This document shows, in pieces, positions 11,107-17,862 of a stretch of 34,947 nt of DNA. The stretch lies in UHGV virus genome UHGV-0108399. One strand, written 5' to 3'. How positions within the stretch are numbered: position 1 is the stretch's first letter; each line of letters starts with the position of its first letter. Source of the DNA: a virus. The translations under genes and the position numbers were made by a program. Under the pieces are notes generated by a model that had not been told where the DNA came from, made no database searches, and worked only from the letters and a program-made list of their open reading frames with translations.

Positions 11107-12987
11107 ATGACGCCAAGTGAACTTAGCGACCTGCTTTGGGCGCAGGTTGACAGGGTGGCTCCGCACCTGTTGCCAAACGGCAAGAAAGAGGGGCATGAGT
11201 GGGTTGCCGGTAACGTCAACGGTGACAAGGGAAACAGCCTTAAGGTCAACCTTAGCGGCAAGAAAAAATGGGCTGATTTCGCTGAGGGAGACGGCGGTGA
11301 CATGCTTGATTTGTGGATGGCATGTCGTGGAATTAACCTGCATCAGGCTATGCAGGAAGCGAAAGCCTTTCTCGGAATCAAGGATGACGATCACCATTTC
11401 GATGCCAAACGTGAGAAGAAATTCTCCAGACCTGACCGCAAGAAAATCGCCCGCTACGTTACCAGAACAGAATCCCATCTTGAGTACCTGCAATCGCGTG
11501 GCATATCGCCAGAAGTCGTAAAGCGCTACGAGGTTGTCAGCGGCAAGGTGTGGAATGGAGAACGAGAACTTGATGCACTGGTGCTTCCGTACAAACGCGA
11601 TGGTGAGTTGTTGCAGGTCAAGCGAATCAGCACTGAGCGCCCGGACGGGAAGAAAGTCATTATGGCAGAAGGTGATTGCGAACCTTGTCTGTTCGGATGG
11701 CAGGCTCTGGACGCTGGCGTGAGGGCGGTTGTACTTTGCGAAGGCGAAATTGATTGTATGAGCTATGCGCAATACGGCATCTCGGCGTTATCCGTGCCGT
11801 TTGGTGGCGGGAAAGGCGCTAAGCAACAGTGGATTGAGTTTGAGTATCACAACCTCGACAGGTTTGAGGAAATATTCATCTCGATGGATGTTGATGATGT
11901 TGGTCGTGAAGCCGCAAGGGAAATCGCAAGCCGACTCGGTGAACATCGTTGCCGTCTTGTTACTCTGCCGTACAAAGACATCAACGAATGCCTGATGAAC
12001 GGTGTTACCGAGGATGAAATCTGGCAGTACATCGGCACGGCATCCTACTTCGATCCTGAAGAACTCTACAGCGCGCGAGAGTTTTACCAGGACACTATCA
12101 ACGCTTTCTACGGCAAGCAGCAGTATCTGTTTAATCCACCGTGGGAATCTCTGGCAGATAAATTCCAGTTCCGTGAGGCAGAGTTGACGCTGGTCAATGG
12201 TGTGAACGGTCACGGAAAAACGGAGGTTGTCGGGCATATGGCACTTGAGGCAATGCGTCAGGGTGTGAAGACGTGCATCGCGTCACTTGAGCTGAAGCCT
12301 GGTATTCTCCTTAAGCGACTTACCCGTCAGGCAACGTGCTGCAAGATGCCGCCAGTGCTGGAAATTGACTCTGCATTTAAATTTTATGACGAAAGACTCT
12401 GGGTGTTTGGCCTGACCGGAACGGCGAAAGCCGACAGGCTGATCGAAATATTCGACTACGCTCGCCGCCGATACGGCATCCAGTTATTCATCATCGACAG
12501 CCTGATGAAATGCGGCATAGGTGACGATGATTATAACGGGCAGAAAGCATTTGTTGACTCGATTTGCGACTTCAAAAACAAAACAAACTCCCACGTCATT
12601 CTCGTTACTCACTCGCGAAAAGGAGACAGCGAAGAAAAACCAACCGGGAAAATGGACGTAAAAGGCTCTGGAGCGATAACAGACCTGACAGACAACCTTT
12701 TCATCATCTGGCGTAACAAGGCTCGCGAGAGAGCGTTACAGAGAGTTCAGAGTGGTGAAAAGATGTCAGAGAAGGACGAACAGCTACTGGCATCTCCGGC
12801 ATCTGTTTTGATGCTTGAAAAACAACGTAACGGCGAAGGTTGGGAAGGTGGCGTCCCGTTGTTCCTTGACGAGCAATCGCACCAGTTCCTGCAACTTGAA
12901 TCAGGATCGCCATATAGCTACATCGCCAATATGCCGAAATCGGAATATGACGAGGCGTGGCGACAGGAAAACGTGACGGAGTATTAA
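11107..12987 (+). CDS. Bifunctional primase-helicase (DnaG-like TOPRIM + SF4 DnaB/T7 gp4-like helicase)
   Basis: 626 aa; TOPRIM motifs (VVLCEGEIDCMSYAQ; ISMDVDDVGREAA); helicase Walker A NGVNGHGKTE and Walker B LFIIDSLMK; N-terminal region looks like a cysteine-poor relic of a primase zinc-binding domain. Confidence 0.8.
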   Translation: MTPSELSDLLWAQVDRVAPHLLPNGKKEGHEWVAGNVNGDKGNSLKVNLSGKKKWADFAEGDGGDMLDLWMACRGINLHQAMQEAKAFLGIKDDDHHFDAKREKKFSRPDRKKIARYVTRTESHLEYLQSRGISPEVVKRYEVVSGKVWNGERELDALVLPYKRDGELLQVKRISTERPDGKKVIMAEGDCEPCLFGWQALDAGVRAVVLCEGEIDCMSYAQYGISALSVPFGGGKGAKQQWIEFEYHNLDRFEEIFISMDVDDVGREAAREIASRLGEHRCRLVTLPYKDINECLMNGVTEDEIWQYIGTASYFDPEELYSAREFYQDTINAFYGKQQYLFNPPWESLADKFQFREAELTLVNGVNGHGKTEVVGHMALEAMRQGVKTCIASLELKPGILLKRLTRQATCCKMPPVLEIDSAFKFYDERLWVFGLTGTAKADRLIEIFDYARRRYGIQLFIIDSLMKCGIGDDDYNGQKAFVDSICDFKNKTNSHVILVTHSRKGDSEEKPTGKMDVKGSGAITDLTDNLFIIWRNKARERALQRVQSGEKMSEKDEQLLASPASVLMLEKQRNGEGWEGGVPLFLDEQSHQFLQLESGSPYSYIANMPKSEYDEAWRQENVTEY

Positions 12988-15781: not shown

Positions 15782-15966
15782 ACGCCACAATTCAAACGAT
15801 ACCAGAGCTTCTTATCAAGACACGAGGCAATCAGACCGAAGTGGCGAGGATGCTTTCCTGCGCAAGAGGAACGGTGCTCAAGTACAACCGAGACAGCAAA
15901 GGCGAGCGTCACGTAATAGTTAACGGCGTCCTGATGGTCACGCCAGGCAAAAAGGGAAGACGATGA
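15778..15966 (+). CDS. ninH: NinH-like small DNA-binding protein
   Basis: 62 aa; TIPELLIKTRGNQTEVARMLSCARGTVLKY ... HVIVNGVLMV resembles lambda NinH. Confidence 0.6.
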   Translation: MNATIQTIPELLIKTRGNQTEVARMLSCARGTVLKYNRDSKGERHVIVNGVLMVTPGKKGRR

Positions 15967-16481
15967 GCATAAGAGAGCTAAATCTCACCAAAGAACAGCA
16001 CGAGTGGCTGAATGGCTGGCTTGAACTGTGGGGCGCATGGGTTTATTCAGGTCGTCTGGAAAAGCGCATGAGCAGCGTAATAGCGAAGTTCATGGAGAGC
16101 GTAGAGCCGGGAAGAGTTATGACAAGGCCAATGTGTAATGATGATGATGGAATGTTGATTTCTCAGGTCGTCGATTCCGTCATGTACATTGACAAGAAAG
16201 CCTTTGGCATCCTCCTCAGCTACTACGCTCATGGTTCATCTAAGCGAGCAATTGCATCCTACTATCACGCGACTGCAAAGCCACGCAAGATGTGTGGACG
16301 TGGTGGCGATGGATGGAGAAAACCTTCACTGGCAACCTGTAGAAACGAAATTGACGACATCCTGAAAGCGTCGTTATTTGTTTTGTACCAACCAATGCAA
16401 AATGCTTTCAAAATGCGTAAACGTGTTGAGAAAGTTAAGCATGTTGCTGTTAAGAGCCTTGACATGCAATTATCCATTTAG
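15963..16481 (+). CDS. Q: Late-gene antiterminator Q (non-lambda type)
   Basis: 172 aa; between ninH and the late promoter and lysis cassette; resembles the Phage_antitermQ family by memory. Confidence 0.65.
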   Translation: MSIRELNLTKEQHEWLNGWLELWGAWVYSGRLEKRMSSVIAKFMESVEPGRVMTRPMCNDDDGMLISQVVDSVMYIDKKAFGILLSYYAHGSSKRAIASYYHATAKPRKMCGRGGDGWRKPSLATCRNEIDDILKASLFVLYQPMQNAFKMRKRVEKVKHVAVKSLDMQLSI

Positions 16482-16488
16482 CCATAAT
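16459..16488 (+). promoter_or_regulatory. Late promoter pR' (-35 TTGACA 16459..16464, 18-nt spacer, -10 CATAAT 16483..16488)
   Basis: Consensus -35 hexamer overlapping the 3' end of Q; predicted start about 16495; the qut site is presumed to overlap. Confidence 0.5.
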
Positions 16489-16498
16489 TAGAAGGTAA

Positions 16499-16540
16499 GC
16501 TGCCGTTAGTGACTCTTAAGTTGCAACGGTGGCTTTTTTT
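16499..16540 (+). terminator. tR'-like intrinsic terminator (9-bp stem with two G-U pairs, followed by T7 run)
   Basis: GCTGCCGTT ... AACGGTGGC-TTTTTTT immediately downstream of the predicted pR' start, giving a short terminated late transcript unless Q-modified. Confidence 0.55.
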
Positions 16541-17078
16541 GTTTGCACAACAGGTAAGAGCATTGAACCCGCAGACCTCGCGGAATTGGTTAAAGGTGCC
16601 GCGCAGTGCTCTTATCGTTGTGGTGAATACGCAGGCTGATGCGTTAATCAGGTGAACGAGATACCCGCCGGTCCGTGATATGGCACACCGTGCCGGTCAT
16701 ATCTGCCGCGGTTAGGTTTACGAGGATTTCGTAAAGCTGGTCTAGGGTGAAGCCGTGAAAGCGGAGGAAGTAAAACGAGGCGTCGGTACACGCCTATCGT
16801 CATTAAGTCGGAGTTCAGCACCGACCGCCACAACCCAAACTGAGCCGTAGCCACTGGCTGTCCTGAATTCATCAGTGATAGTTATGCTGCGGCCTTCTAC
16901 ACATGATCTTCGTGAAAGCGGGCGGCATGAGGTTGCGCTAACAACCTCCTGCCGTTTTGCCCGTGCATATCGGTCACGAACAAATCTGATTACTAAACAC
17001 AGTAGCCTGGATTTGTTCTATCAGTAATCGACCTTATTCCTAATTAAATAGAGCAAATCCCCTTATTGGGGGTAAGAC

Positions 17079-17402
17079 ATGAAGATGCCAGAAAAACATG
17101 ACCTGTTAGCCGCCATTCTCGCGGCAAAGGAACAAGGCATCGGGGCAATCCTTGCGTTTGCAATGGCGTACCTTCGCGGCAGATATAATGGCGGTGCGTT
17201 TACAAAAACAGTAATCGACGCAACGATGTGCGCCATTATCGCCTGGTTCATTCGTGACCTTCTCGACTTCGCCGGACTAAGTAGCAATCTCGCTTATATA
17301 ACGAGCGTGTTCATCGGCTACATCGGTACTGACTCGATTGGTTCGCTTATCAAACGCTTCGCTGCTAAAAAAGCCGGAGTAGAAGATGGTGGAAATCAAT
17401 AA
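17079..17402 (+). CDS. S: Holin (lambda S, class I; dual-start S107/S105)
   Basis: 107 aa, essentially identical to lambda S as I recall it ([41 protein letters not shown]...). Confidence 0.9.
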
Positions 17403-17862
17403 TCAACGTAAGGCGTTCCTCGATATGCTGGCGTGGTCAGAGGGAACAGATAACGGACGACAGAAAACCAGAAATCACGGTTATGACGTCATTGTTGGCG
17501 GAGAGCTATTCACTGATTACTCAGATCACCCTCGCAAACTTGTCACGCTAAACCCCAAACTCAAATCAACAGCAGCCGGACGTTACCAGCTTCTTTCCCG
17601 TTGGTGGGATGCCTATCGTAAGCAGCTTGGCCTGAAAGACTTCTCTCCGAAAAGCCAGGACGCTGTGGCACTGCAACAGATTAAAGAACGTGGCGCTTTA
17701 CCGATGATTGATCGCGGTGATATTCGTCAGGCTATCGACCGTTGCAGCAATATCTGGGCTTCACTGCCTGGCGCTGGTTATGGTCAGTTCGAGCATAAGG
17801 CTGACAGCCTGATAGCAAAATTCAAAGAAGCAGGCGGAACGGTCAGAGAGATTGAGGTATGA
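17386..17862 (+). CDS. R: Endolysin (lambda R lytic transglycosylase)
   Basis: 158 aa, near-identical to lambda R ([42 protein letters not shown]...). Confidence 0.9.

Follow-up and report, generated by a model that had tools for sequence, protein, structure and literature searches.

Between the late-gene antiterminator gene Q and the holin gene S of the UHGV virus genome UHGV-0108399 lies a core (16546-16836, + strand) which we read as two adjacent structured noncoding RNAs derived from transfer RNA (tRNA), placed in the tRNA slot that follows the terminator tR' and acting in trans as stable RNA. We give this reading a probability of about 60%. The whole stretch of 34,947 nucleotides (nt) is called the window here and all positions refer to it. 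A preliminary description made from its letters had suspected an uncharacterised structured RNA or a regulatory element at this place. The former is borne out, as the core has covariation-supported structure common to many unrelated phages, and of the two an RNA gene is favoured and a regulatory leader appears less likely. The two elements, called module 1 and module 2, and the domain X carried by module 2 recur in hundreds of viral contigs, where the frames are near-invariant and the inserts differ. Compensatory changes among these homologous sequences support the closing stem of module 2, the helix Pa, three hairpins inside X and a loop-loop contact.

The tRNA-like frame and its inserts

Module 2 (16617-16834, + strand) was delimited by parsing of its elements and by family counts. 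Its 5' half in the window (16617-16644) consists of the acceptor-like strand GT-TGTGGTG (16617-16625), the linker AA (16626-16627) and the hairpin H1, T-ACGCA-GGCTGA-TGCGT (16628-16644). The 3' half (16807-16836) has the T-arm-like hairpin H2, GTCGG-AGTTCAGCA-CCGAC (16807-16825), and the acceptor-like strand CGCCACA-AC (16826-16834), after which CC follows. The same order (5' strand, AA, H1 with the loop GGCUGA, insert, H2 and 3' strand) is found throughout the family and is complete in the window. The insert has from 20 to more than 250 nt; as H2, most members have GCCGG-AGAUCAGCA-CCGGC and the window has GUCGG-AGUUCAGCA-CCGAC. The closing stem of 7 base pairs (bp), which can be extended to 9 bp, abuts the 5-bp stem of H2, and the AA linker corresponds to tRNA positions 8-9. 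The arrangement of a canonical tRNA, with a 7-bp acceptor stem stacked on a 5-bp T stem and a two-base linker, is thereby seen in the pairs TGTGGTG/CGCCACA and GTCGG/CCGAC. From its predicted fold module 2 is shown to have the shape of the top half of a tRNA, in which kissing loops stand for the D-loop/T-loop elbow and the X domain for the anticodon arm: an anticodon arm with a 7-nt loop is absent, as are the usual elbow motifs (GG in the D-loop and TTCRA in the T-loop), and the loops GGCTGA and AGTTCAGCA pair with each other instead.

The members of the family were gathered by exact signature patterns in IMG/VR and their architecture was parsed explicitly; the H1 signature was found in more than 120 viral contigs, which is a lower bound. 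Parsing of the 3' end used complementarity in some steps, and this is avoided in a test of the closing stem that is anchored on the sequences of H1 and H2. Here the closing 7-mers pair at 7 of 7 positions in 118 of 125 distinct elements; when the partners are shuffled this falls to 43 of 125. The closing stems are of 41 different sequences (such as GAGGGTG/CACCCTC, GTTGGTG/CACCAAC, GCAGATG/CATCTGC and GGTGGAG/CTCCACC), with 4-5 pair types at positions 1-3. The H1 stem also varies (TGCACA..TGTGT in HK629, GCCCG..CGGGC in contig L134, GCTCA..TGAGA in KsaM-C1) and H2 stems likewise show compensated variants. The H1 loop, GCUG(AU), is complementary to (AU)CAGC in the H2 loop and can form a Watson-Crick kiss of 4-6 bp. 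On collecting H1-loop variants by a dedicated search, we found CGGC in the H2 loop of all 4 independent elements whose H1 loop is GGCCGA, each with a different closing stem, and in 0 of 118 canonical elements. One element with a GGUUGA H1 loop has CAAC and another retains CAGC as a U.G pair; for the variants GGAUGA and GGCUUA (two elements each) no compensation was found in the H2 loop. Since variant H1 loops pair with matching H2-loop variants, the contact between the two loops is supported by covariation. Over all stems, 57 G-U pairs were counted against 6 A-C mismatches; a DNA hairpin, or RNA of the opposite strand, would not be expected to show this, and therefore the + strand is read as the RNA.

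Other contents of the frame were also noted. At L007, L043 and L176 one viral contig carries two copies of module 2 with unlike closing stems and inserts. The module 2 inserts in L101, L113, L233 and L235 contain about 45 nt (AGCTAGATGGTGAGGTAATGGCTCACCATGGCGACGA) that closely resemble helix 11 of 16S ribosomal RNA (rRNA). This looks like real homology, and it would mean that the frame is able to carry a fragment of a cellular RNA. The resemblances of CAGGCUGAU to 23S rRNA and of GCCGCGGU to the 530 loop of 16S rRNA are judged compatible with chance.

In the window the frame carries X (16645-16806, + strand), a 162-nt three-way junction replacing the anticodon arm that was recognised by its signature and by covariation. 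Its family layout is UAAUCAG, Pa, (A)CGAGA, the Pb arm, UAAAACG, Pc, A, UCG and Pa', and the window has every element: UAAUCAG (16645-16651), Pa (16652-16659 with 16797-16804), the Pb arm (16662-16770, with at least four helices including a GNRA-type hairpin at 16748-16760), the junction UAAAACG (16771-16777) and the Pc hairpin AGGCG-UCGGUACA-CGCCU (16778-16795). The length of X ranges from 130 to 185 nt. Its signature, UAAAACGAGGCG-N6-11-CGCCUAUCG, was found in 102 viral stretches; among species-representative genomes of bacteria just 6 have it, one from Pseudomonas and five from alpha-proteobacteria. Therefore X is taken to be phage-borne, and with 6 bacterial matches only, no useful host map is obtained. 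Pa is 93.9% paired over 47 distinct cores, compared with 29-47% in slid controls, and 4 of its 7 pairs change on both sides (column 8-74 has GC 11, UA 11, CG 7, GU 7 and AU 3). Its covariation score is 0.329 against 0.119 for shuffled alignments, and 0 of 500 shuffles scored as high. On 7 natural sequences RNAalifold gave 42 pairs, 13 of them with compensatory changes, and three hairpins, one of which is GNRA-type. The Pb arm of the window (subtype A) is also present in the divergent contigs L129, L148, L204 and L223. X was found in two kinds of frame, the kissing-loop frame of the window and a canonical-looking, class-II-like tRNA frame (L130 and L196; D-arm GUGGCGGAAUUGGUAGACGC, T-arm GCAGGUUCGAGUCCUGC, sometimes ACCA), and its occurrence in both confirms that it takes the position of the anticodon arm.

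About 30 near-invariant nucleotides are concentrated at the three-way junction of X, and its position is the exact site of bacterial tRNA introns. Both features would suit a catalytic or intron-like RNA (a self-cleaving ribozyme or a degenerate intron) made up of X or of all of module 2, which would release the cargo of the Pb arm, sometimes a whole tRNA, or split the transcript. Cargo is found in that arm, with a complete tRNA called by ARAGORN in 7 of 57 distinct Pb arms and a T-loop motif in 14 of 57; phage contigs with X also carry small ribozymes, and module 2, at about 220 nt, is near the size of the smallest group I introns. But the near-invariance is partly imposed by the search pattern, and for the window element Rfam gave no match at E up to 10 to GOLLD, ROOL, group I introns, hammerhead, twister, pistol or hatchet. 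Also X is unlike a tRNA intron, because Pa runs on into conserved CGA/UCG pairs and removal of X leaves no anticodon stem-loop. We consider a catalytic role quite unlikely. The group I intron reading of X was rejected, as there is no Intron_gpI match and excision would leave no anticodon loop.

The complete tRNAs nested in Pb arms (L143, L145, L147, L150, L188, L205 and L218) are for Pro, Ser, Gln, Ala and Phe, and two have odd anticodon loops. The contig L130, which has an X-bearing tRNA-like gene, carries a Twister-P5 ribozyme at 11480-11534 (- strand; 58.5 bits, above the gathering score).

Directly upstream of module 2 lies module 1 (16546-16622, + strand), a long hairpin frame around a variable insert, which was recognised as inverted repeat I3 and is recovered in the minimum free energy (MFE) fold. 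The outer stem is CACAAC (16546-16551) with GTTGTG (16617-16622), followed by the internal loop AGGT/ATC, the inner stem AAGAGCATTG (16556-16565) with CAGTGCTCTT (16604-16613) and the insert (16566-16603). The long-range inverted repeat noticed earlier at this place is real, its 11-nt arms (16555-16565 and 16604-16614) being 91% complementary. The layout of the family (CACAAC, AGGU, AAGAGCAUUG, insert, CAGUGCUCUU, (U/A)YC as AUC or UCC, and GUUGUG) is present in full in the window. Across the loci studied about 50 different inserts of 35-130 nt occupy this one frame, some of them holding a tRNA T-arm or a tRNA-Met-like anticodon arm. The frame was also found in lambda, SeSz-2, IME207, IME11, phiEt88, MK54, KsaM-C1 and Entb_48, and a compensated variant, GAGAGCA...UGCUCUC, exists. 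Module 1 usually stands directly 5' of module 2, the strand GUUGUG being common to both, and by its predicted layout it is shown to be a second frame of the same modular kind. The motif CACAAC occurs at both 16546-16551 and 16829-16834, each copy complementary to GTTGTG at 16617-16622; they could allow alternative pairing, or could be direct repeats that an exchange of cassettes left around the two-module unit.

Genomic setting and the weighing of the readings

These elements are found in phages that share no flanking homology and infect bacteria of different orders (N4-like IME11, the siphoviruses IME207, MK54 and SeSz-2, Erwinia phiEt88, and Hafnia, Aeromonas and alpha-proteobacterial phages). 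When 16546-16840 was used as query in a sensitive DNA search, its first 80-100 nt gave matches to many non-lambdoid phages (Skatevirus SeSz-2, Shuimuvirus IME207, N4-like IME11, Erwinia phiEt88, and Klebsiella and Enterobacter phages), and the remainder to Hafnia phage Meifeng and an Aeromonas phage with 82-85% identity. In these genomes the matches lie within long intergenic regions. The element lies ahead of tRNA-Arg, tRNA-Thr and the holin gene in Meifeng, upstream of the small terminase in the Aeromonas phage, and before tRNA-Phe in phiEt88; in SeSz-2 and MK54 it is between tail genes and antisense to both neighbours. A tRNA is found within 500 nt at 32 of 219 loci, all on the strand of the element. 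A terminator-like site is present at most 160 nt downstream of 38 of 122 elements, compared with 18 of 124 in an upstream control window. Clustering of the neighbouring genes revealed no protein that regularly accompanies the element except the lambdoid Q and S, whose presence itself reflects sampling. As the element is antisense to its neighbours in SeSz-2 and MK54 or beside tRNA genes elsewhere, the most probable interpretation is an RNA gene in its own right and not a regulatory leader, and in other phages the same RNA is, judging by its surroundings, a free-standing gene.

The place of the core between tR' and S would also be explained by a cis-acting element of the late leader, serving the 5' end or stability of the S-R-Rz messenger RNA (mRNA), assisting pausing or antitermination, or setting the time of holin translation. 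A lambda-type holin gene comes next at 43 loci, in lambda the corresponding place still has the module 1 frame together with a closing stem like that of module 2, in compensated form, and the Meifeng and Aeromonas elements stand ahead of lysis and packaging genes. Yet we think a cis function unlikely, because the element is also found outside late leaders and antisense to its neighbours: the frames occur away from late-operon starts, antisense to tail genes, in the lytic N4-like IME11 and beside tRNAs. Sf6, which agrees in Q, pR', tR' and the S leader, has tRNAs instead, and the inserts differ in nearly every phage, which is hard to fit to one fixed cis function.

It may further be asked if the core is a functional RNA at all, or consists of relics, that is, decayed tRNA genes together with DNA 'boundary sequences' conserved through module exchange by recombination. 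In CUS-3 such boundary sequences (bsq4 and bsq3) are annotated on the flanks of the core and not over it, a label that says nothing on RNA; the interval is a clear mosaic junction in the alignments, the lambda copy looks degenerate, and some inserts are pieces of tRNA or 16S rRNA. But five different helices and the loop-loop contact are kept paired by compensatory changes, the ratio of G-U to A-C is the mark of an RNA from one strand, and near-identical frames are present in phages that share no flanking homology and whose hosts are of different orders. A relic origin is thus regarded as very improbable.

Several results weigh against the reading of the core as tRNA-derived stable RNAs. ARAGORN finds no tRNA in the window, CUS-3 or HK75, and the Rfam tRNA model has no match at E up to 10 in 15900-17500. 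The tail in the window is A-CCC, and across the family an encoded CCA is not a conserved trait. Because exact patterns were used in the search, part of the apparent invariance of H1, Pc and the junction strings stems from the search itself, and many members are closely related, near-identical copies in E. coli prophages. The MFE z-score of -1.4 on either strand is not significant; since thermodynamic stability alone does not reach significance, the case for structure rests on the comparison of homologues. Finally, RNase P cleavage, 3' maturation and stability are inferred from shape.

Searches against known families gave the following. In Rfam 15, cmscan at permissive E over the window region and 20 related loci returned only tRNAs, one Twister-P5 elsewhere and sub-threshold noise. 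Transfer-messenger RNA (tmRNA) was rejected, as ARAGORN finds none and the Rfam tmRNA matches are below noise and off target; a tmRNA-like tag was rejected too, the 10-codon frame NEASVHAYRH* of the window not being kept in the Hafnia or Aeromonas homologues. The phi80 'M3 RNA', which had been considered as a late-leader RNase P substrate, is an oop homologue in its record, and the phi80 leader is without these modules. A literature search over about 8 million papers gave chance matches only for the signature strings and, by topic, no description of the element; one in older or subscription journals is possible. The Pas small RNAs of Stx-type prophages of enteropathogenic E. coli adjoin a holin/lysozyme operon and a sialic acid esterase gene (bioRxiv 10.64898/2026.05.13.724894).

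On the reading that we prefer, the late transcript would release a stable, tRNA-like RNA that acts in trans; this is our best guess. Once Q allows read-through of tR', the modules would be strongly transcribed and form the 5' portion of the late RNA. The enzymes of tRNA processing would then excise them, with RNase P acting at the 5' side of the acceptor-like stem, and with 3' trimming and possibly CCA repair at ...CACA-A-CC, after which the modules would persist as stable trans-acting RNA in late infection. The frame would supply the processing signals and stability, and X or another insert the activity. The stable RNAs rnaC and rnaD from the tRNA cluster of T4 may serve as precedent by analogy. 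X might act as a ribozyme, bind a conserved component of the cell or of a defence system, or serve as a scaffold carrying tRNAs. A bolder proposal, on which we have considerable doubt, is that the frame-plus-insert RNAs form a new ornate class of phage RNA, a tRNA-shaped kissing-loop scaffold with exchangeable cargo. In such a class X might process itself as a ribozyme, or bind with high affinity to a conserved component or signal of the host or of defence; whole tRNAs would be carried in the manner of GOLLD, and the lambda leader would be a decayed member.

If the preferred reading is true, an unrecognised family of structured RNA genes resides in the classical phages CUS-3 (of E. coli K1), HK629, HK75 and IME10 and has decayed in lambda, with a nested modular design (frame, X and cargo arm) that is found in lambdoid, N4-like and siphoviral phages whose hosts belong to several bacterial orders. 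The family would take its place beside GOLLD/ROOL and the T4 RNAs of species 1 and 2, which are likewise phage RNAs linked to tRNA genes, and it would offer a genetically tractable E. coli system for studying the role of such RNAs. A natural tRNA-like scaffold with variable inserts also parallels the engineered 'tRNA scaffold' used for recombinant RNA expression. Annotation pipelines now leave the region blank or call spurious small open reading frames (ORFs) in it.

The surrounding late region

The source is a P22-like E. coli phage or prophage, with IME10 and APC_JM3.2 as its nearest relatives. The region between Q and S had been described as a leader of about 540 nt running from pR'/tR' to the holin gene; the location holds, but in place of a single leader we find a unit of promoter and terminator, then 290 nt that hold the proposed RNA gene(s), and finally an ordinary lambda-type S leader. 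Q (15963-16481, + strand, 172 amino acids (aa)) is of the phage 21/L type (Pfam PF06530 Phage_antitermQ, E 1.4e-25), and its counterpart is annotated as Q in CUS-3, Sf6 (gene 59) and HK75. The late promoter pR' (16459-16488, + strand) has the -35 box TTGACA (16459-16464), an 18-nt spacer and the -10 box CATAAT (16483-16488), and scores 11/12 in a promoter scan. The intrinsic terminator tR' of the short pR' transcript (16499-16540, + strand) was read from the sequence as the stem GCTGCCGTT...AACGGTGGC followed by T7, and lies inside bsq4 of CUS-3. Both had been predicted in the preliminary description, and both are confirmed by their identity with the annotated features of Sf6 and HK75. The Q-binding element (QBE; 16468-16483, + strand), AATTATCC/ATTTAGCC, equals the one proposed for phage L (PMC8022706). 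As is typical of phage 21/L-type late regions, pR' overlaps the 3' end of Q, the QBE octamers are in tandem and the terminator is within about 50 nt.

Downstream of the core, the canonical lambda-type leader of S (16837-17078, + strand; bsq3 of CUS-3) is common to lambda, HK629, HK75, Sf6 and CUS-3 with few differences. It carries the inverted repeats I1, I2 and I6, and the stem CCCCTTATTGGGG is directly ahead of the start codons of S. The S gene (17079-17402, + strand) is an ORF of 107 aa with the dual start MKM, annotated as holin in CUS-3, Sf6, HK75, HK629 and lambda. A GC-rich hairpin of 13 bp followed by GTTTTG lies in the conserved S leader at 16923-16954; a pair in it is compensated (G-C in lambda, U-A in CUS-3) and is a U.C mismatch in the window. 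Its role could be that of a further, weak terminator, or the late leader might be processed here.

On aligning the interval with lambda, HK629, HK75 and Sf6, 16401-16545 was found to be common to phages with a phage-21-type Q and the part from about 16826 to S to all including lambda, with a variable slot between. The module 1 insert and about 16626-16825 are unrelated to lambda, and the earlier impression that part of the interval is lambda-like and 16620-16800 differs is therefore correct. The suggestion that this is a slot for tRNAs and other added genes also agrees with the two tRNA genes that Sf6, phage 21 and phage L carry there (PMC8022706 for L). In Sf6 these are tRNA-Asn and tRNA-Thr, starting directly after tR', and the right-hand junction of the slot is the 3' end of a tRNA or tRNA-like element. 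The GC-rich core noted earlier is real but modest, with 54.6% GC in 16546-16836 compared with 40.6% for pR'/tR', 46.3% for the S leader and 48.6% for the whole window.

Over the full Q-S interval the identity is 98.5% with CUS-3 and 98.0% with phage Huey. The annotation of CUS-3 consists of the two boundary sequences only (bsq4 is 16482-16545 and bsq3 is 16837-17078 of the window), leaving the core blank. The preliminary description had held that colinear alignment with known late-leader sequences would speak against an RNA here; formally such an alignment exists with CUS-3, whose core is merely unannotated. A survey of 5,426 complete E. coli genomes found the window-type core in 116, UTI89 included, and among the matches listed no annotated feature was found under it.

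Small ORFs are present in the interval, of 74 aa (- strand, 16648-16872), 48 aa and 50 aa (16875-17027, + strand), and hypothetical proteins are annotated here in Huey (two) and in Meifeng (one, minus strand). They bring up the possibility that the interval holds small protein-coding genes. The 50-aa ORF matches PHROG 22751, a family of unknown function, with E 1.8e-27; for the other small ORFs no Pfam/PHROG-type family match was found. In lambda the DNA of the 50-aa ORF is kept but both candidate start codons are mutated, its differences between the window and lambda are 3 nonsynonymous and 2 synonymous as counted in the alignment, and it overlaps the compensated hairpin 16923-16954. For these reasons it is probably an annotation artefact and PHROG 22751 probably a family built from mis-called ORFs; apart from it the claim that the interval is free of ORFs stands. 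Among homologues the Pc loop has 8-11 nt and the H2 loop 7-13 nt; such changes, in non-multiples of three, would shift any reading frame and the core is therefore taken to be non-coding. Conservation tracks helices and not codons, and we give small coding genes next to no credence.

Comparison with known phage and cellular RNAs

The nearest likeness in position is to the late-operon tRNAs of phages 21, Sf6 and L (tRNA-Asn with tRNA-Thr or tRNA-Leu), which the core resembles in slot, strand, right junction and tandem pairing; phage L has its two tRNA genes in the same slot (PMC8022706). They share with module 2 a 7-bp acceptor or acceptor-like stem contiguous with a 5-bp T or T-like stem. In contrast to them, module 2 is without an anticodon arm, canonical D and T loops and encoded CCA, and cannot decode. 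With the lambda late leader (pR', 6S RNA, tR' and the region upstream of S) the window shares a functional counterpart of phage 21/L type at 16459-16540 and near-identity at 16837-17078. Immediately downstream of tR' in lambda come the module 1 frame, holding a different insert, and a closing stem, GTTGTGCTG...CAGCACAAC, that is compensated with respect to the window (locus L127, NC_001416, 990-1150, about 44790-44950 in the record). As this frame and closing stem are kept and H1, H2 and X are absent, the lambda late leader appears to be a decayed family member. Both modules are present in HK629, where the insert is a different one and H1 is compensated.

Two further arrangements were observed in these relatives. 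In HK629 (L128, 539-1250) a gene for an HNH endonuclease stands between Q and the RNA modules and is followed by a second tR' hairpin, so that the leader is duplicated around a homing-type gene. In HK75 (L003, 1620-1760) module 1 is followed by the same acceptor stem with a canonical D-arm, GCTCAATGGCGAGC, a canonical T-arm, GCCGGTTCGATTCCGGC, and another insert of about 75 nt, which is not called by ARAGORN.

Among cellular RNAs, the tRNA-like domain of tmRNA and the Y RNA YrlA resemble module 2 in that an acceptor/T-arm mimic carries a non-tRNA body at the position of the anticodon stem. They differ from it in that YrlA retains canonical D/T-loop contacts and has its tRNA-like part internally, and in that the window element lacks the conserved tag frame of tmRNA. 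Group I introns in the anticodon loops of bacterial tRNAs are like X in being structured inserts of more than 100 nt at the anticodon position, with a multi-helix core and a GNRA-type hairpin.

The T4 RNAs rnaC and rnaD (species 1 and 2) are, like the present family, small stable phage RNAs co-located and co-oriented with tRNA genes, and are processed together with tRNAs. Like module 2, rnaC has a T-arm-like 3' hairpin, a short tail and a large non-tRNA body. However, no similarity to the family was seen by eye, the T loop of rnaC is canonical, and neither RNA has X or a modular insert. GOLLD and ROOL measure roughly 600-800 nt by estimate, compared with about 80 and 220 nt for the two parts of the core, which belong to phages of Proteobacteria and have a tRNA-like frame. 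They are large ornate RNAs of phages and prophages, often near tRNA islands, and the linker of GOLLD sometimes contains tRNAs (PMC12286853, PMC5737381). The tRNAs of that linker find their parallel in those carried by the Pb arms of X.

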